Positions 16,864 to 25,998 of a DNA stretch of 64,000 nt are shown in pieces. The stretch lies in NCBI RefSeq assembly GCF_056712565.1, contig NZ_CM160072.1; one strand, given 5' to 3'. Position 1 is the first letter of the stretch. Each line of letters starts with the position of its first letter. Position numbers and translations under genes: made by a program. The notes under the pieces were generated by a model, which made no database searches, had not been told where the DNA came from, and worked only from the letters and a program-made list of their open reading frames with translations.

Positions 16864-16996
16864 CGGTGATCTGAACGCGTTGTTGGATGAAACGGAGGCC
16901 GCCTGGGCGGTCTGTGCAGACAAAGTGGACATGATTATTGCGTGTCAGGAGCGAAACAGTGAACAAACCACAATCCCTGCGCCACGCCCTCAATAA
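16706..16996 (+). CDS. lysC: LysC (Rz1-like outer-membrane lipoprotein spanin)
   Basis: Lipobox LSGC after signal peptide; overlaps lysB in another frame. Confidence 0.5.
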   Translation: MRTRIYAAGLILLCLLTLSGCGNAPRSPEVQLTVSGCPRVTPCRLDQAAPRINGDLNALLDETEAAWAVCADKVDMIIACQERNSEQTTIPAPRPQ

Positions 16997-17390
16997 GGCG
17001 GTGCCTTATGTCCGCAATAACCCGGACAAACTGCATCTGTTTGTGGATAACGGTTCGCTGGTTGCCACGGGGGCCAGCTCCATGTCATGGGAGTACCGCT
17101 ACACCCTGAACGTGGTGATTGAGGATTTCAGCGGCGACCAGAATCTGCTGATGGCCCCGGTTTTGCTGTGGCTGCGGGATAACCAGCCCGATGCCATCAA
17201 TAATCCGGCGTTACGGGAAAAGTTATTCACCTTTGAGGTGGATATTCTGCGCAACGATGTCTGTGATATCAGCCTTAACCTGCAACTGACGGAGCGTGTG
17301 CTGGTCAGCACTGACGGCAGTGTGTCGAGCGTTGAAGCTATAGCGGAACCTGATGAACCTGAAGAAATGTGGACGGTGAAACGTGGCTGA
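16938..17390 (+). CDS. R: Tail completion protein gpR (start uncertain, TTG 16938 or GTG 16959)
   Basis: KPQSLRHALNKAV resembles P2 gpR N-terminus; synteny. Confidence 0.7.
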   Translation: MRVRSETVNKPQSLRHALNKAVPYVRNNPDKLHLFVDNGSLVATGASSMSWEYRYTLNVVIEDFSGDQNLLMAPVLLWLRDNQPDAINNPALREKLFTFEVDILRNDVCDISLNLQLTERVLVSTDGSVSSVEAIAEPDEPEEMWTVKRG

Positions 17391-17820
17391 ACTGCAGAAG
17401 GTGGATGAGTGGCTGGCGGCCTTGCTGGCGAATCTGGAGCCTGCCACACGCCAGCGTATGATGCGGGAACTGGCGCAGGAGTTGCGCCGCAATCAGCAGA
17501 AGAATATCAGGCTGCAGCTTAACCCTGATGGCAGCGGCTTTGAGCCGCGCCGGGTAGCAGCCCGCAGTAAGAAGGGGCGCATCAAACGCCAGATGTTCGC
17601 CAAATTGCGCACTAATAAATACCTGAAAACTGCCGCCACAGCGGATTATGCCTGCGTGTATTTTGATGGAAAAGTCCAGCGCATCGCCTGTGTACACCAC
17701 TATGGACTGCGTGACCGTGTTAGTCGAAGAGGTTTAAAAGTACAGTACCCTGAGAGAAGGCTTTTAGGATTTACTAAGGATATTAGTAACTTGAACTTGG
17801 GTGTTTACTTAAAACGCTAA
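17383..17820 (+). CDS. S: Tail completion protein gpS; last ~20 codons run into AT-rich cargo DNA
   Basis: Synteny after R; 3' end from about 17760 is AT-rich and continuous with the cargo island. Confidence 0.75.
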   Translation: MAELQKVDEWLAALLANLEPATRQRMMRELAQELRRNQQKNIRLQLNPDGSGFEPRRVAARSKKGRIKRQMFAKLRTNKYLKTAATADYACVYFDGKVQRIACVHHYGLRDRVSRRGLKVQYPERRLLGFTKDISNLNLGVYLKR

Positions 17821-17909
17821 AGTAAATAGTGGGTTAAGAGAATTAGTGGAGGGAGACTTTATCGTTCTACATAAGATACCTTGCTTGAATATACTATAAA
17901 GCTCTTTTT

Positions 17910-17938
17910 TTGAGATTAATCTTGTTGTACTTTAATGT
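17910..17938 (+). promoter_or_regulatory. Putative sigma70 promoter for the OLD-like gene
   Basis: TTGAGA - 17 bp - TAATGT upstream of ATG 17966. Confidence 0.3.
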
Positions 17939-17965
17939 CTTCACCTCACTAATGGAGCTAATTTT

Positions 17966-19924
17966 ATGATAGTAGGGATTTTTTTAAGGTATTTTAAAAC
18001 ATACAACGGAAATCATTACATACCGTTATCTTCTGGAAGTCAGTTTTGTGGAATTGTTGGTAACAATGGAATTGGCAAAAGTTCTGTTCTTGAGGCTTTA
18101 GATTCGTTTATTAATAACAAACCATGGAATATTAATTCTTCATTTAAAAGAACCTCCAGTGACAGACCTTCTCCACATATTGTTCCTTTATATCTTATAA
18201 AGCGAGAGGAATTACATGAAGATCATCATGCTAAAGCTGAAATCTTAACGCAATTAGTATTAGAATATAGCAATAGTAATGCTGATGTTACATTGACGCC
18301 AACAACACGAAATATAATTAATACGTTTTTTGAACATATTAACAAATTAAAAAGAAATTTAAATCTCCAAGATTATTTTTTGATCCCTCTGGGTGTCGAG
18401 AAAGATGGTGATGTAAGTATTTCGATTCTTAATGGGAAGAGTTTATGTCGACTTTTGGAGGTTGATAATCCCGATAATAAAGTTTCGAGCGAGTTGCTTA
18501 GTAAGCACTTTGGGTATTTATTACATCATGTCCGCCATAAGTATGAATATATATATATTCCAAAGGATATAGACTCTGAATCGTTTACGAAGCTAGAAAC
18601 AAGTGAAGTACAAAAGTTGATGGGTGAGTCTTTAGAGCAGATAATTAAAGATAGAATATCTGATAGAACCATAAGTCAAATCAATACAGGGCTTGCCAAA
18701 TTTCTGGATGGTGTTGAAGAGGAGCTTGAAGAATATGGTTATAGAACATCTGGCGAGAGACAATCGCGATTAAAAAAGAAAGATGTTTATAATTTGATTA
18801 TCGAAGCATTCTTCAAAGTTAGGAAATTAAATAAAAAGCAGAATTCAGGTTGGATTGAAATTAGCTCGCTAAGTTCAGGGGAGAAGCAACGTGCAATAAT
18901 GGATATTGCATATGGGTTTCTTACCAATCATAGAGAAAATGGCGATAATCTGATTATTGGAATTGATGAGCCAGAATGTTCTCTTCATATGTCTGCATGT
19001 TTTGAACAATTTGAAAAGCTCTATTCTATTAGTGGTATATGTGAACAATTAATATTTACTTCACATTGGTATGGCTATCTTCCAACCGTCGAAAATGGAT
19101 GTACCACAACTATCCTTAAAACAGATTCAACTCATCATTTTGAATTATATGATCTTGCCAGTTATAGAGAAGAAGTCAGGAAGAAAGTAAAAACCTCTTC
19201 CCCGGGTATGCCATTTGATATAAAAATAAAAAGTGTAAATGACCTTATACAATCCATAATATCTAGCTGTTTGGCTGAGAAACCTTACAATTGGTTGATT
19301 TGTGAGGGTACTACAGAAAAAATATATCTTTCGCATTATCTAAAGGACTTGGTAGAAAATAAAAGGCTAAGGATTGTGCCTGTAGGGGGAGCTAGTGAAG
19401 TTAAAAAAATATTTAAGCATTTAGAAGCTTCTTATGAAGAGTTCAAAAAAGACCTCAAAGGAAAAGTGTTCTTACTAACCGATACAGATTCAGAGTTGGT
19501 GTCATATGATACCCCAGTTATGCCGCATGTTGTTTGTAAGCGAATTGTTAGTGTAGGTGATTCAGTGAAGTTGGTTGATATTTCTTCCAATCCAGTTTCT
19601 CCTGCAACAGAAATAGAGGATTGTCTTAATCCTGTATCGTTTATAGAGGCTTTAACATCATTTTCTTCACGTTTTCCTGAGCTTCAGGCATTGCTGCCTA
19701 ATAGTAATGTTATGATAGATGAAAGACATTCATCGTTTGCTGCGATGGATTTGTCACCCAAGAACAAAAAAACGCTTGATGCTTTTTTTGACCGTGAAGG
19801 AATTAAGTTTGATTTTTCAAAGGAATATATTTCAATCTGTGAGCGAAATGAGCGGAAAAGGCCAGAGTGGATTGCCAAAATTGAAAATTTTTTTATAAGT
19901 GATAAACCTGTAAAGTTTAATTGA
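17966..19924 (+). CDS. OLD-family ATP-dependent nuclease (ABC ATPase + TOPRIM), 652 aa; accessory defence-type cargo
   Basis: Walker A GNNGIGKSS, ABC signature LSSGEKQ, Walker B LIIGIDEPE, H-loop FTSHW; C-terminal TOPRIM-like WLICEGTTE and LLTDTDSE; same motif layout as host YbjD in this window; AT-rich. Confidence 0.85.
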   Translation: MIVGIFLRYFKTYNGNHYIPLSSGSQFCGIVGNNGIGKSSVLEALDSFINNKPWNINSSFKRTSSDRPSPHIVPLYLIKREELHEDHHAKAEILTQLVLEYSNSNADVTLTPTTRNIINTFFEHINKLKRNLNLQDYFLIPLGVEKDGDVSISILNGKSLCRLLEVDNPDNKVSSELLSKHFGYLLHHVRHKYEYIYIPKDIDSESFTKLETSEVQKLMGESLEQIIKDRISDRTISQINTGLAKFLDGVEEELEEYGYRTSGERQSRLKKKDVYNLIIEAFFKVRKLNKKQNSGWIEISSLSSGEKQRAIMDIAYGFLTNHRENGDNLIIGIDEPECSLHMSACFEQFEKLYSISGICEQLIFTSHWYGYLPTVENGCTTTILKTDSTHHFELYDLASYREEVRKKVKTSSPGMPFDIKIKSVNDLIQSIISSCLAEKPYNWLICEGTTEKIYLSHYLKDLVENKRLRIVPVGGASEVKKIFKHLEASYEEFKKDLKGKVFLLTDTDSELVSYDTPVMPHVVCKRIVSVGDSVKLVDISSNPVSPATEIEDCLNPVSFIEALTSFSSRFPELQALLPNSNVMIDERHSSFAAMDLSPKNKKTLDAFFDREGIKFDFSKEYISICERNERKRPEWIAKIENFFISDKPVKFN

Positions 19925-19931
19925 TAAATGG

Positions 19932-19951
19932 TCGCAGGGGAAACCCTGCGA
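19932..19951 (+). terminator. Terminator-like hairpin after OLD-like gene
   Basis: TCGCAGGG-GAAA-CCCTGCGA (GNRA-type loop) 8 bp after the stop; weak T-tract. Confidence 0.45.
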
Positions 19952-19958
19952 TATTCTA

Positions 19959-20006
19959 CTAACCTCTAACCTCTAACCTCTAACCTCTAACCTCTAACCT
20001 CTAACC
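19959..20006. repeat. Heptanucleotide tandem repeat (CTAACCT) x ~6.9
   Basis: Six perfect CTAACCT units plus CTAACC read directly from the sequence; intergenic between cargo gene and V promoter. Confidence 0.95.
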
Positions 20007-20034
20007 AGAGGGTTTATTTCTTTTCAAAGAAAAT

Positions 20035-20052
20035 TGTATCTTCTTTTATACA
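20035..20052 (+). promoter_or_regulatory. Putative Ogr-dependent late promoter element upstream of V
   Basis: TGT-N12-ACA dyad (TGTatcttcttttatACA), the conserved activator site of P2 late promoters; P2 has a late promoter before V. Confidence 0.5.
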
Positions 20053-20099
20053 AAATAAGCTGTTTGAAGAGGTTGTGTAAAGCATGGAAAAATAATCTT

Positions 20100-20678
20100 A
20101 TGAATACACAACTCACAGAAATCATGCGCCTTATCACCAACCTGATCCGCACAGGGGTAGTCACTGAAGTGGACAAGGAAAACTGGCTTTGTCGGGTGAA
20201 AACGGGCGACCTTGAAACCAACTGGATTAACTGGCTGACGCTGCGCGCGGGTAATGCCCGCACATGGTGGCGACCATCGGAAGGTGAGCAGGTGGTGCTG
20301 CTGAGTCTGGGAGGAAATCTGGAAACCGCCTTTGCGCTGCCCGCTGTCTATTCGAATCAGTTCGCACCACCGTCGACGTCGGCGGAAGCCTGCGTGACAG
20401 AACATCCTGACGGTGGCTGGTTTGAATACGAACCAGCCACCGGGCGCTGGTATGTCAGGGGCATCAAATCCATGGTCATTGAGGCTGCTGACAACATCAC
20501 CCTGAAAACCAGAGAGTTTGTGCTGGAGGCTGACCGCACGCGTATTAACAGCGAAGTAGTGATCAATGGTGGTGTTACCCAGGGCGGCGGTGCAATGAGT
20601 TCTAACGGAATTGTGGTTGATGCACATCAGCATACTGGCGTCCTGAAAGGCGGCGACACAACCGGAGGCCCGGTATGA
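20100..20678 (+). CDS. V: Baseplate spike protein gpV
   Basis: N-terminus and WWRPSEGEQV region resemble P2 gpV; synteny. Confidence 0.85.
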   Translation: MNTQLTEIMRLITNLIRTGVVTEVDKENWLCRVKTGDLETNWINWLTLRAGNARTWWRPSEGEQVVLLSLGGNLETAFALPAVYSNQFAPPSTSAEACVTEHPDGGWFEYEPATGRWYVRGIKSMVIEAADNITLKTREFVLEADRTRINSEVVINGGVTQGGGAMSSNGIVVDAHQHTGVLKGGDTTGGPV

Positions 20679-22527: not shown

Positions 22528-23930
22528 GCACAAAATTTTATACCCTGCTGACGGATATTGGCGCGGCGAAACTCGCCAGCGCCGCCGCGCTCGGTGTGCC
22601 TTTAAAAATTACCCATATGGCGGTCGGCGATGGCGGCGGAACATTGCCAACGCCGGACGCCAAGCAGACAGCATTGGTAAATGAGAAACGCCGGGCTGCG
22701 CTGAATATGCTCTATATCGACCCGCAGAACAGCAGCCAGATTATTGCTGAACAGGTGATCCCTGAAAATGAGGGTGGTTGGTGGATACGTGAAGTGGGCC
22801 TGTTTGATGAGTCCGGGGTATTGATTGCCGTGGGAAACTGCCCGGAAAGCTATAAGCCGCAACTGGCTGAAGGCAGCGGGCGTACCCAGACCGTGCGCAT
22901 GGTGCTGATTACCAGCAGTACGGACAATATCACCCTGAAAATCGACCCTGCTGTAGTACTGGCAACTCGCAAGTATGTGGATGATAAGGCACTGGAGCTG
23001 AAGGTGTATGTGGATGACCAAATGGCAAAACACCTTGCCGCAGCGGACCCACATTCACAGTATGCGCCAAAAGCCAGCCCGATATTTACCGGAACCCCCA
23101 AAGCGCCGACGCCAGCGGCGGGGAATAATACCACGCAACTTGCGACCACCGCGTTTGTTCAGGCGGCACTGACGGCCCTTATTAATGGTGCGCCAGCCAC
23201 GCTGGACACGCTAAAAGAAATAGCCGCAGCCATTAACAATGATCCGAAATTCAGTACCACCATTAACAATGCGCTGGCACTGAAAGCGCCGCTGTCGAGT
23301 CCGGCACTCACCGGAACGCCAACAGCCCCTACTGCCGCACAGTCGGTTAACAATACACAGATTGCCACTACGGCTTTTGTGAAATCGGCGATTGCAGCAA
23401 TGGTGGGGTCTGCACCTGCGGCACTGGATACATTGAACGAACTGGCGGCGGCGCTGGGGAATGACCCGAACTTTGCCACGACAATGCTTAATGCGCTAGC
23501 AGGTAAACAACCGCTGGACAATACGCTGACTAATTTGAGTGGAAAGGATGTTGCTGGTCTTCTCGCATACCTTGGTTTAGGAGAAGCGGCGAAAAGGGAT
23601 GTGGGCACAGGAGATAATCAGATACCGGATATGTCTTTCTGGTCTTCCGCATCGGGTGGCGTTAATTTCCCTAATGGATTCCAGATGCGATTCGGTGCTA
23701 TCGCTGGTAATGGTGGAAAATTATTTTCTACGCCATTTACAAATCAGTGCTATGGCATTGTTTTCGGACAAACATATGGAGCCAACTACTGGATGTTCAG
23801 CCCGATGTACAGAGCATCTGATCTGAGTAATACCAGTTTTGCATTCATTAACAAAGCCTGGTCTGGAATTCCGGGGACAGGTGCTCAGGACGCTGGTGAA
23901 TCAGTTTTTTATATTGCAGTAGGGTATTAA
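22524..23930 (+). CDS. H: Tail fibre protein gpH (constant N-terminal part joined to currently expressed variable C-terminal part)
   Basis: 468 aa with Ala/Thr-rich repeats (TTAFVQAALTAL, TTAFVKSAIAAM); crossover site inside the gene. Confidence 0.85.
   Translation: MSTKFYTLLTDIGAAKLASAAALGVPLKITHMAVGDGGGTLPTPDAKQTALVNEKRRAALNMLYIDPQNSSQIIAEQVIPENEGGWWIREVGLFDESGVLIAVGNCPESYKPQLAEGSGRTQTVRMVLITSSTDNITLKIDPAVVLATRKYVDDKALELKVYVDDQMAKHLAAADPHSQYAPKASPIFTGTPKAPTPAAGNNTTQLATTAFVQAALTALINGAPATLDTLKEIAAAINNDPKFSTTINNALALKAPLSSPALTGTPTAPTAAQSVNNTQIATTAFVKSAIAAMVGSAPAALDTLNELAAALGNDPNFATTMLNALAGKQPLDNTLTNLSGKDVAGLLAYLGLGEAAKRDVGTGDNQIPDMSFWSSASGGVNFPNGFQMRFGAIAGNGGKLFSTPFTNQCYGIVFGQTYGANYWMFSPMYRASDLSNTSFAFINKAWSGIPGTGAQDAGESVFYIAVGY
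23560..23585. other. Inversion crossover site (gix/hix-like), left
   Basis: TTCTCGCATACCTTGGTTTAGGAGAA fits the Din-invertase site pattern TTnTCnnAAACCnnGGTTTnnGAnAA (one mismatch); inverted copy at 25351. Confidence 0.6.
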
Positions 23931-23931
23931 T

Positions 23932-24375
23932 ATGGAAATGGTTTATAGCGCCTCAAATAATAGTTTTTTCGCTAAAAATGATGTGGCGAAATATGAACAG
24001 GCCGGATGGGAACTTGCTGATATTGTCGAAGTGACATATGACACTTACCTGGAATTTATTGAAGACAGAACGTTGCAAGGGAAAGTACGCATCGCGGGTG
24101 ATGATGGCCTTCCCACCTGGGGGGAAATTCCACCGCCAACTCATGAGGAACAAATTGCCGCAGCCGAACTGGAAAAGCAGCAATTGATTAATCAGGTCAA
24201 CGAATACATATACAGTAAGCAATGGCCTGGTAAAGCAGCGATTGGTCGCCTGAAAGGTGAGGAACTGGCGCAATATAATTTGTGGCTGGATTATCTGGAC
24301 GCACTGGAACTGGTTGATACCTCCAGTGCTCCAGATATTGAATGGCCTACGCCTCCGGCAGTTCAGGCCAGATGA
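23932..24375 (+). CDS. Tail fibre assembly protein (orientation-1 copy)
   Basis: 147 aa ending ...DIEWPTPPAVQAR, like Tfa chaperones; follows H. Confidence 0.75.
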   Translation: MEMVYSASNNSFFAKNDVAKYEQAGWELADIVEVTYDTYLEFIEDRTLQGKVRIAGDDGLPTWGEIPPPTHEEQIAAAELEKQQLINQVNEYIYSKQWPGKAAIGRLKGEELAQYNLWLDYLDALELVDTSSAPDIEWPTPPAVQAR

Positions 24376-24949
24376 CGTCCGGCGCTGTGCTGGTATCTGT
24401 TGCCGTCACCGCATCAATGTAATCCAGCACAGCGTTAAGTCGGGTGTTTTCTGTCTGCGTCAGCTTCCGCCCGGCCTGCAATTTCAGTTGAATCAGACTA
24501 ATGGAAGCCATTGCAGTATCAATCAGTGACTGACGCTGTGCTTCTGCCGCGTCTAGTGTGGCGCTATGCTGTGCCTCAGTATCTGTCACCCATTTCTCAC
24601 CATCCCATTCATCGTATGGCGTTAACGGGGCGATAGTGGTTGTATTTTCAGGGTAATCACCTGGTGCTGTGATTTCTTTTGATTCTCCTGTTTCGGTGCT
24701 AAAAACGATTTCACCGCGATGGTCTGGCACATATTCCCATGAGTTAAAATCTGCAGAACGGCAGATTGCATAACCAGCTTTACATGTAACTGGTGAATCT
24801 AAACAGGAATATGCAGGGATACCGACACCAATGGCAAGATATTCATTTGAAGTAGAAATATATTCCCGAGTTTTACCATCATAGTTATAGACGGTAATAT
24901 TCCCCGCCTTCGTGGCAATAATCTCGCTATTTAATACGGCGTTATCCAT
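24347..24949 (-). CDS. Tail fibre assembly protein (alternative, orientation-2 copy)
   Basis: 200 aa; C-terminus ...APDVIWPELPEA mirrors the other Tfa; opposite strand inside invertible segment. Confidence 0.7.
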   Translation of the reverse strand: MDNAVLNSEIIATKAGNITVYNYDGKTREYISTSNEYLAIGVGIPAYSCLDSPVTCKAGYAICRSADFNSWEYVPDHRGEIVFSTETGESKEITAPGDYPENTTTIAPLTPYDEWDGEKWVTDTEAQHSATLDAAEAQRQSLIDTAMASISLIQLKLQAGRKLTQTENTRLNAVLDYIDAVTATDTSTAPDVIWPELPEA

Positions 24950-25404
24950 TATGCAGCCCTTACGATATAGTTAAATGCAATATTTCGTGGACGGGTTTCG
25001 CTTCCGCCATATGATGATGTAAATCCCGAATATGCCCGGTGTCCCGCATCCGTCGTATTAGCCCAGGAAGGACCGCTAGAAGTATAGATGACCCCATTGT
25101 AATCATGGCCGTGTGCCTCAATGCTCCCGTCCTGAGCAGACAGGAGAGTCCGTCCTGAATCAATTCCTCTTCCATCATCCCACCCACGAATGAATTCGCC
25201 GCGTAAATCTGGCAATTTATTTGTCGGATAAACTTTTGCCAGTTCCGGATACTCTTCGGCAGAAAAAGCTGCACCGTTGCATTTCAGCCAGCCTGTTGGC
25301 GGTGTGACTGAAGGCCACGGAACAGGCACACCTACGGGTAATGCAGAGCCTTCTCCTAAACCAACGTTTAAGAAAATGCAGCGATTACGACTAACTGGCA
25401 TCAT
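24949..25404 (-). CDS. Alternative tail-fibre C-terminal variable segment (expressed after inversion)
   Basis: 151-aa minus-strand ORF; shares GLGE junction with H at the crossover site. Confidence 0.7.
   Translation of the reverse strand: MMPVSRNRCIFLNVGLGEGSALPVGVPVPWPSVTPPTGWLKCNGAAFSAEEYPELAKVYPTNKLPDLRGEFIRGWDDGRGIDSGRTLLSAQDGSIEAHGHDYNGVIYTSSGPSWANTTDAGHRAYSGFTSSYGGSETRPRNIAFNYIVRAA
25351..25376. other. Inversion crossover site (gix/hix-like), right
   Basis: TTCTCCTAAACCAACGTTTAAGAAAA; inverted repeat of the site at 23560; adjacent to invertase gene. Confidence 0.6.
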
Positions 25405-25431
25405 CCCCGGTTTTTATTCAAGGAGATGATC

Positions 25432-25998
25432 ATGCTTATTGGCTATGTACGCGTGTCAACAAATGACCAGAACACCGATTTGCAACGTAGTGCGCTGAAC
25501 TGCGCGGGATGTGAGCGGATTTTTGAGGACAAAATCAGTGGCACTAAGTCCGACAGACCGGGGCTTAAAAAACTGCTCAGGACACTATCGGCAGGTGACA
25601 CACTGGTTGTCTGGAAGCTGGACAGGTTGGGGCGCAGTATGCGGCATCTTGTTACGCTGATAGAAGAGTTGCGCCAGCGCGGCGTGAATTTCCGAAGTCT
25701 GACTGACAGTATTGATACCAGTACCCCAATGGGCAGTTTCTTTTTTCATGTCATGGGTGCCCTGGCTGAAATGGAACGCGAACTGATAGTTGAACGTACC
25801 AGGGCAGGGCTGGCTGCAGCTCGTGCTAAAGGCAGAGTAGGTGGACGCCGTCCTAAGTTGACTACCGAACAGTGGGCACAGATTGGGCGTTTACTCGAGG
25901 CCGGAGAATCAAGACAGCGTATTGCACTGATTTTTGATGTAGGCGTTTCTACCATTTATAGAAAATTTCCGGCAAATAAGAGCAATGAATCTCCCTGA
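25432..25998 (+). CDS. Serine DNA invertase (Gin/Pin/Hin family)
   Basis: MLIGYVRVSTNDQNTDLQR...VVWKLDRLGRSM... nearly collinear with Mu Gin as I recall it; catalytic Ser in YVRVST; AGGAG RBS. Confidence 0.9.
   Translation: MLIGYVRVSTNDQNTDLQRSALNCAGCERIFEDKISGTKSDRPGLKKLLRTLSAGDTLVVWKLDRLGRSMRHLVTLIEELRQRGVNFRSLTDSIDTSTPMGSFFFHVMGALAEMERELIVERTRAGLAAARAKGRVGGRRPKLTTEQWAQIGRLLEAGESRQRIALIFDVGVSTIYRKFPANKSNESP

Follow-up and report, generated by a model that had tools for sequence, protein, structure and literature searches.

Cassette-linked C-termini of the tail completion protein gpS at the S–V cargo site of an Escherichia coli P2-like prophage

The window, as we call the whole stretch of 64,000 nucleotides that was analysed, contains the late-gene block of a P2-like prophage of E. 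coli, in which the lysis genes, R, S, a low-GC island of 2.3 kb, V, W, J, I and H follow one another. Positions refer to the window, and all features described lie on the + strand. The gpR tail completion/terminator gene (16938–17390; PF06891 at 159.6 bits) belongs to the backbone and is 97–100% identical to that of other E. coli P2-like prophages (sliding identity to L086 and L087). Gene S (17383–17820) starts with a GTG codon overlapping the 3′ end of R and encodes the 145-residue gpS (Ne1 or tail completion protein). Both family profiles were matched above their curated cut-offs, PF05069 at 126.2 bits (cut-off 24.3; residues 3–133) and the equivalog TIGR01635 at 117.3 bits (cut-off 37.65; match ending at residue 133 of 145), and these matches are independent of the deviant C-terminal region. 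The place of the gene in the late operon between R and V and the fold, that of the Ne1 and HK97 gp10-like tail completion proteins, agree with this assignment. The role of gpS in tail completion and head–tail joining comes from P2 S mutants (PMC4362835, PMC11784142), the tails of which are unable to join heads (PMC4362835). In the P2 gpS family (λ gpZ, SPP1 gp16.1 and HK97 gp10 superfamily; PMC4362835, PMC11784142) the modal length is 148 residues, against 145 for the window protein, whose C-terminal helix has a sequence unique to its cassette and lacks the usual ..D..L..WL.. ending. A full-length gpS of this clade has ∼19 residues after the LLG motif; the window protein has 16. Family-wide matches in a representative-library search also stop at residues 131–136, so conservation within the family is lowest in this C-terminal tail.

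The island has a GC content of 0.32–0.35, against 0.55–0.57 outside it, and contains a single gene-sized open reading frame, the cargo gene (17966–19924). Its product of 652 residues has the architecture of the OLD family in one protein, with an N-terminal ABC-type ATPase (AAA_15; PF13175, 64.1 bits, cut-off 32.1, residues 7–367) and a C-terminal OLD-like TOPRIM domain (PF20469, 28.9 bits, cut-off 23.2, residues 443–508). PADLOC matched AriA (1e-21, over the ATPase part only) and Old (2e-11); the fused AriAB model gave 7e-9 over only ∼45 residues, and the gene stands alone without an AriB partner. Searches of NCBIfam and the PDB returned no informative match and no solved relative. The combination of ABC ATPase and TOPRIM is shared with the OLD-family nucleases, PARIS AriA/AriB and Gabija GajA, and the matches of the cargo protein are remote; like P2 old, it is a single gene in a prophage hotspot. 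From this architecture the product is a candidate anti-phage nuclease, OLD/AriA-like and outside any named system. More distant relatives were found at other sites: one stands alone in a Pantoea chromosome, one adjoins the integrase of a Yersinia P2/186-like prophage, and one is part of an Rhs/immunity region in Enterobacter.

Several smaller features flank the cargo gene. A candidate σ70 cargo promoter (TCTACA-18-TATACT; 17866–17895) is weak, and such hits are no more frequent in the region than in shuffled sequence; positions 17880–17965 are 84% conserved with L174, a prophage of Cronobacter sakazakii. Right after the cargo stop lies a hairpin, TCGCAGGG-GAAA-CCCTGCGA (19932–19951), which from its sequence and alignment is a probable cargo terminator; in Cronobacter the stem is conserved and the loop is not. 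It is followed by 6.9 tandem copies of the heptamer CTAACCT (19959–20006) and then by a terminator-like hairpin with a T-run (19998–20021). Other E. coli genomes have 5, 6, 7 or 9 copies of the heptamer, and Cronobacter has CCTCTG ×15 at this site.

The right end of the island carries a TTGT-N12-ACAA dyad, TTGTATCTTCTTTTATACAA (20034–20053), located 65 nt upstream of the ATG of V. Its form, TGT-N12-ACA, is the consensus of four Ogr-dependent late promoters of P2, including P_V (PMC3931495), and it precedes the first gene of a late operon, as expected of an Ogr/Delta-dependent late promoter. We take it as the predicted Ogr-type activator site of P_V. Apart from this site, the window has a single exact TTGT-N12-ACAA, 76 nt upstream of the sheath gene. 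From the V ATG onward the sequence is again homologous to that of all relatives; V (20100–20678; PF04717, PF18946) encodes the gpV baseplate spike and would serve as the right arm of exchange. Among 37 distinct sequences upstream of V, 36 have a TGT-N12-ACA dyad at 63–66 nt, and the rest of the cassette sequence there is unrelated. At loci without cargo the P_V dyad begins 4 nt after the S stop. There is thus essentially no neutral DNA between S and the operator, and for this reason each cassette carries its own predicted P_V.

Base composition changes inside S. The GC content falls from 0.569 over codons 1–114 to 0.347 over positions 17726–17820, a drop from 57 to 35% at about 17726 (codon 115), and is 0.553 in V. 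We refer to codons 115–145 with the stop (17726–17820) as the AT-rich S 3′ arm of the cassette; it is delimited by composition and by the homology break, and is found in Cronobacter L174 on a different S body. According to the preliminary description the last ∼20 codons of S are AT-rich and continuous with the island. This is correct: the GC content is 0.358 at 17740–17820 and 0.337 in the cargo open reading frame, and the peptide quoted there is encoded exactly at these positions. In ∼8.6 kb of neighbouring late genes, ∼8,600 segments of 81 nt were compared with 17740–17820, and all have a higher GC content (minimum 0.383). The break itself had been placed within 17740–17820 and has to be moved, as composition and DNA homology both break at ∼17726 (codons 115–117), ∼15 codons upstream of the point at which the amino-acid sequences diverge.

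That point was located in an alignment of S with two cargo-free relatives (CP019275 and Klebsiella phage 4LV2017) and two relatives with other cargo (vB_EcoM-813R9 and Cartapus). Protein conservation runs to ...RRLLG (G129), and the C-termini beyond it all differ. In codons 115–129 the conserved gpS motif SRxGxxVxYxERRLLG is preserved through AT-rich synonymous codons; their GC3 is 0.27, that of the S body 0.65 and that of the cargo gene 0.26. Codons 130–145 encode the cassette-specific tail FTKDISNLNLGVYLKR. A foreign AT-rich element could in principle have inserted in the 3′ end of S and deleted the native C-terminus, with S now read through to the first stop. Such an event would leave a composition continuous with the island, as is observed; the conserved gpS motif in codons 115–129 lies within the AT-rich stretch, however, and speaks against it.

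Comparison with the E. coli backbones L086 and L087 revealed a layered structure. Identity is 97–100% up to ∼17400, 78–82% over the S body (17410–17720) and ∼50% from 17726; from V onward it is ∼90%, rising to 97–100% by ∼21600. The diverged but GC-normal S body (codons ∼6–114; 17400–17725) thus forms an intermediate mosaic layer in the identity profile. On this profile the newest crossover in the window prophage appears to lie near the S start (∼17400), so that the whole S allele would have come with the cargo, and the AT-rich junction at 17726 appears to be an older scar.

C-terminal tails were compared across 80 IMG/VR loci retrieved with an S-core query, together with phage and E. coli records; the IMG/VR prophages were picked by S-core similarity and are a redundant sample. 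The S–V interval is empty at 57 loci (gap of 68–69 nt), and all 57 have the tail VNDDVEAMTRDMILQWLAG or VNDEVETITRDTLLRWLAG with a tail GC content of 0.50–0.60. This canonical tail has 19 residues, from which the last 16 residues of the window protein differ, and FTKDISNLNLGVYLKR occurs at none of the 57 cargo-free loci; the C-terminus thus does depart from that of island-free phages, as had been proposed. Loci with cargo represent 26 distinct cassettes, with many different cargoes, and 24 of these have an AT-rich tail of their own (GC content 0.19–0.42). Identical cargo is always paired with an identical tail in the sampled loci. In the two exceptions, L061 and L084, a canonical or near-canonical tail is retained and the cargo follows directly after the stop. 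The idea that the 3′ end of S is a recurrent junction for cargo exchange is supported by these counts. A protein query with the 42-residue tail region returned gene fragments only and no further S allele with the window tail.

When 120 close gpS homologues were added to the sampled loci, 113 distinct tails were obtained; the S cores bearing them share at least 73% identity overall. The tail length is 18–20 residues in 95 of the 113, whereas random entry into cargo DNA yields 16–23 codons in only 12.5% of cases (0.125 per cassette). The tail length is therefore far too constant for the cassette tails to be random read-through. By a shuffle test, 105 of the 113 tails are similar to the canonical one (p < 0.05). 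The 16-residue tail of the window is one of the eight that fail this test (z = 0.7, p = 0.24) and is also the shortest of the 113 variants, both of which are what overwriting by foreign DNA would predict for this one locus.

The homology of the window tail was clarified by C. sakazakii prophage L174, which carries an orthologous OLD-like cargo (91% amino-acid identity) between S and V. Its gpS has 148 residues and ends in FTDNTRYLILEILLKSLDK, a tail of the standard 19-residue length. The 3′ ends of the two S genes align codon for codon, with 78% nucleotide identity over codons 115–129 and 60% over the tail, and have unusual codons in common (CGA AGA GG... and AGA AxG CTT TTA GGA TTT AC...); the homology of the window's own tail to the standard S tail is drawn from this single orthologous locus. 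At the TAA that ends the window gene (17818–17820) L174 continues for three codons to an AAA TAG that is shared with the window (17824–17829). In this codon-by-codon comparison AGT AAA TAG (17821–17829) is what is left of the three final codons of the full-length tail, the ancestral stop among them, and the E. coli tail is three codons shorter because a new TAA arose early.

The S bodies of the two prophages differ in origin. L174 is ∼97% identical to the Enterobacter-type backbone L090 (∼1 mismatch per 30 nt) up to nucleotide ∼270 of S, mismatches increase from ∼270 to ∼325, and window-like sequence begins at ∼325; over the whole S body (codons 1–114) the identity is 94%. For the S body of the window the nearest relative is L088, a Citrobacter-type allele (89%). 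Because the body of L174 resembles L090 and that of the window resembles L088, the same cassette, with S codons ∼111/115 to the stop included, is present on two S bodies in two genera. The alignment of the window tail at the DNA level with a standard 19-residue tail from a Cronobacter cassette, together with the tight tail lengths, the 105 canonical-like tails and the lack of target-site duplications and terminal repeats, makes foreign read-through extremely improbable. The earlier statement that an insertion replaced the native C-terminus of S accordingly stands in one part, in that the C-terminus is cargo-specific; it was not a foreign overwrite, as codons 115–129 are conserved and the tail is homologous to that of L174.

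Constraint on the tail was estimated from pairs of related cassettes. In the comparison of the window with L174, pN/pS is 0.81 for the tail, 0.24 for the S body and 0.10 for the cargo gene. Pooled over four pairs of related cassettes the values are 0.48, 0.13 and 0.12, respectively, from small counts, and in one cassette pair the tail reaches 1.68. In one tested pair dS is roughly equal in the arm and the cargo gene (0.47 and 0.52, respectively). The GC content of the tail correlates with its identity to the canonical tail (ρ = 0.75, p = 1e-5), and in cargo-linked tails FYMINK residues are more frequent (0.34 versus 0.18) and GARP residues less so (0.09 versus 0.20). From these values the evolution of the tail looks like weak purifying selection combined with AT-biased drift, not positive selection.

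Diversifying selection on the C-terminal helix of gpS might nevertheless have produced the variants, for example through escape from recognition of gpS by a defence system or satellite, or through avoidance of mixed assembly with co-resident P2-like phages; the linkage to cargo would then be a by-product of proximity. The presence of 113 distinct tails on cores that are so similar, and a tail pN/pS above that of the rest of S and as high as 1.68, would be in keeping with this. We consider it improbable, since the tails of cargo-free loci are near-invariant (57 loci on two backbones), synonymous sites are as diverged as non-synonymous sites with a pooled pN/pS below 1, the FYMINK shift and the GC correlation look like mutational drift, and tails do not vary in the P2 genus, although its members carry cargo.

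The same comparison bears on decay of a domesticated prophage, in which S drifts and its shortened C-terminus marks incipient pseudogenisation unrelated to cargo exchange. Three tail codons have been lost to the new stop, the tail has a pN/pS of 0.81, the cargo gene is split in two in one E. coli genome, and several of the 13 genomes examined have an identical S protein, which fits vertical inheritance. The S body and the cargo gene are, however, under purifying selection in the very comparison that gives the high tail value, the late genes neighbouring S are all intact open reading frames, and cargo-specific tails occur in at least 24 cassettes, including those of the free phages Cartapus and vB_EcoM-813R9. 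Decay of this prophage is thus quite unlikely to account for the tail.

Replacement of the tail is a trait of the clade of the window that does not extend to all P2-like phages. Members of the P2 genus retain FTGEDVQMIEEIILAHL(D/E/N)R as their tail with or without cargo, orf30 included; at the junction the last one or two S codons change, or nine in one cassette type. As L061, L084 and the whole P2 genus keep a native tail with cargo, tail replacement is not obligatory. The lack of space at the empty locus, where the P_V operator begins directly behind S, is a likely reason for cassette-borne tails, but for the same loci the absence of a spacer is insufficient as an explanation by itself.

Boundaries of the cassettes were placed by composition changepoints, which were used instead of identity-based changepoints against cargo-free references because the latter were scattered and confounded by mild backbone divergence. 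On the left side the changepoints of the 26 cassettes lie at S codons 104–150 (median 130; 117 in the window), and on the right side at V +26. The left boundaries vary between cassettes and thus fit homologous crossovers, not a fixed site. They cluster at codons 126–132 in 17 of the 26, which could reflect a preferred junction or selection instead of free crossovers. At the ends of the island (17726 and 20100) a search for target-site duplications and for terminal direct or inverted repeats gave only chance-level short matches. No recombinase, integrase or transposase was found in the island, where the sole gene-sized open reading frame matches ATPase and TOPRIM families only. With no terminal repeats, no recombinase and variable left boundaries (codons 104–150), insertion of a transposon or by site-specific recombination was rejected. 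The preliminary description had also suggested looking for conserved junction sequences at both ends. Such sequences are present, namely the S core on the left and the TGT-N12-ACA operator with the start of V on the right; these are functional elements and not insertion-site repeats.

The absence of terminal repeats and of a recombinase makes homologous recombination in S and V the likely mechanism. The best explanation, and in our judgement a probable one, is a movable cassette that consists of an S-derived 3′ arm, the cargo and its own P_V and is swapped by homologous recombination. The S–V interval of this clade is an accessory-gene hotspot without a neutral spacer, in which cargo may circulate as self-contained cassettes. 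Such a cassette would run from S codon ∼111/115 through the rest of S, the cargo and a tandem repeat to its own Ogr-type P_V. Homologous recombination between related phages would exchange these cassettes, one crossover falling in the conserved S core and the other at the 5′ end of V. The arm on the S side would be genuine S sequence that has been kept linked to AT-rich cargo and sheltered from homogenisation with the backbone. Being weakly constrained as protein, it may have drifted AT-ward while retaining the residues up to G129 and the approximate length and hydrophobic pattern of the C-terminal helix. The layers in the window would then be the E. coli backbone up to ∼17400, a diverged S body (17400–17725) and an old AT-rich cassette (17726 to ∼20100), and in this E. 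coli lineage the tail would in addition have gained a stop three codons early. The recent P2/P4 hotspot literature puts forward this generic recombination process, with no mention of gpS or its C-terminus.

Import of S 3′ ends from lower-GC P2-like phages would fit the data as well as AT drift in situ. Neither the tail-region protein search nor the representative-library search found a lower-GC donor lineage with a similar tail. A Pasteurellaceae-type P2-like phage was considered as the source of the AT-rich arm and set aside: Mannheimia phage PHL101 was uninformative, as T and not V follows S and the identity is 35%.

P2-like phages have known accessory or defence hotspots at tin/old between A and Q, at Z/fun and at the S–V site of orf30 (PMC9122126; 10.1101/2024.10.15.618418; 10.64898/2026.02.27.708500). 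P2 orf30 sits at the same S–V site as the cargo of the window, and this site was thus already known for horizontally acquired genes; no new mechanism or system is described here. The locus has the properties of a hotspot, with variable content between conserved core genes (26 cassettes and 57 empty loci) and low-GC cargo without mobility genes. In the known P2-like hotspots AT-rich cargo likewise lies between conserved core genes, its content varies among near-identical phages, it has no mobility genes and its turnover is attributed to local recombination. Unlike these, the variable block in the clade of the window includes the whole of the next late promoter and, from an essential virion gene, the last ∼20–35 codons. 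Linkage drag at capsule and O-antigen loci is a further parallel, in that diverged flank ends travel along, crossovers vary and a nested mosaic results. Here, in contrast, the flank is coding and only ∼60–100 nt long, it encodes the C-terminus of a virion protein and the AT shift is unusually sharp. No description of cargo-linked gpS C-termini was found in the literature searched (P2/P4 hotspot and gpS papers). The new detail, a modest refinement, is that the exchanged unit reaches ∼20–35 codons into an essential virion gene, with more than 100 C-terminal variants.

A stronger reading, which we hold with little confidence, would make the C-terminal helix of gpS an exchangeable module of each cassette that functionally couples defence cargo to virion structure. 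If this were true, and if the helix matters for assembly or for recognition by a host or satellite, swapping a defence cassette would re-type a virion protein. Co-resident phages could then become incompatible in assembly, or a phage could escape gpS-recognising systems or gain self-tolerance to them.

Hotspots are usually described as variable DNA between intact core genes, whereas here exchange enters a structural gene and the next late promoter. This explains why gpS homologues that are otherwise 75–95% identical have unrelated C-termini, which can mislead clustering and annotation as well as hotspot boundaries called from protein families. It also supplies concrete homology arms and boundaries for the movement of cassettes without mobility genes, and is a small, clean example of a coding flank acquiring the base composition of linked cargo. 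The 113 tails amount to a natural mutagenesis series, which suggests that the virion tolerates such variation and that the last ∼19 residues of gpS may need little beyond their length and amphipathic character.

The S body (the GC-normal codons 6–114, approximately, of S; 17400–17725) shares 78–82% identity with E. coli P2-like backbones, and the same backbones match the window at 97–100% immediately upstream. The nearest relative of this S body is a Citrobacter-type allele, at 89%. S is therefore a three-layer mosaic. The region from V to approximately 21600 is likewise somewhat more diverged (88–95%).

In P2 and its closest relatives (loci L092 and L094–L173), the junction with the cargo is confined to the final one or two codons of S. 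The encoded protein ends in …AHLDR where the interval between S and V is empty, in …AHLER where it carries orf30 and in …AHLNR where it carries another cargo; in the empty loci the P_V operator dyad directly follows the S stop codon. Several cassettes have their cargo gene on the strand opposite S, with the two stop codons 0–6 nt apart (5447/5448 in L088, which carries the Citrobacter-type allele; 1335/1341 in L003; 5933/5939 in the E. coli backbone L087). With this spacing, any terminator of the cargo transcript would need to fall inside the coding sequence of the S tail. One viral contig from IMG/VR (2541047905_000004; 48 kb) holds two S–cargo–V copies, L045 and L046, in inverted orientation; the arrangement could reflect either an error of assembly or a tandem or inverted prophage pair.

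A perfect array of the heptamer CTAACCT (6.9 copies, 19959–20006) is flanked by the terminator-like hairpin of the cargo gene on one side and the P_V operator on the other. Other E. coli genomes with the same island have 5, 6, 7 or 9 copies. The loci with an array at the equivalent site include L174 (5998–6087) and L181–L183. In L174, the orthologous cassette of Cronobacter, the position is the same as that of the E. coli heptamers and the unit differs (CCTCTG, 15 copies). The CTAACCT array is a variable-number repeat located approximately 27 nt upstream of the late-promoter operator.

Further downstream, a resolvase-family DNA invertase gene (25426–25998; PF00239, 179 bits) lies between a tail-fibre assembly gene (23932–24375) and the sheath gene (26141), a site that is the Z/fun hotspot. 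Low-GC patches directly upstream of the invertase gene (region 23600–25400) suggest an invertible tail-fibre segment.

In one of 13 island-bearing E. coli genomes (APEC 16-1068, NZ_CP087287.1; L183, 517–2474), the annotation splits the ATPase–TOPRIM cargo gene into two CDSs, and the length of the locus departs by 1 nt from the heptamer series. This implies a frameshift, and the cargo of this genome is probably inactivated. Relatives of the cargo (58–75% amino-acid identity; L176–L180) occupy contexts very unlike the S–V site. In Yersinia (L177 and L178) the relative lies directly 3′ of the integrase gene of a P2/186-like prophage, in Pantoea (L176) it is a lone gene adjoining the phn operon and in Enterobacter (L179 and L180) it adjoins Rhs toxin and SUKH immunity genes. 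The cargo gene moves among hotspots of differing kinds.
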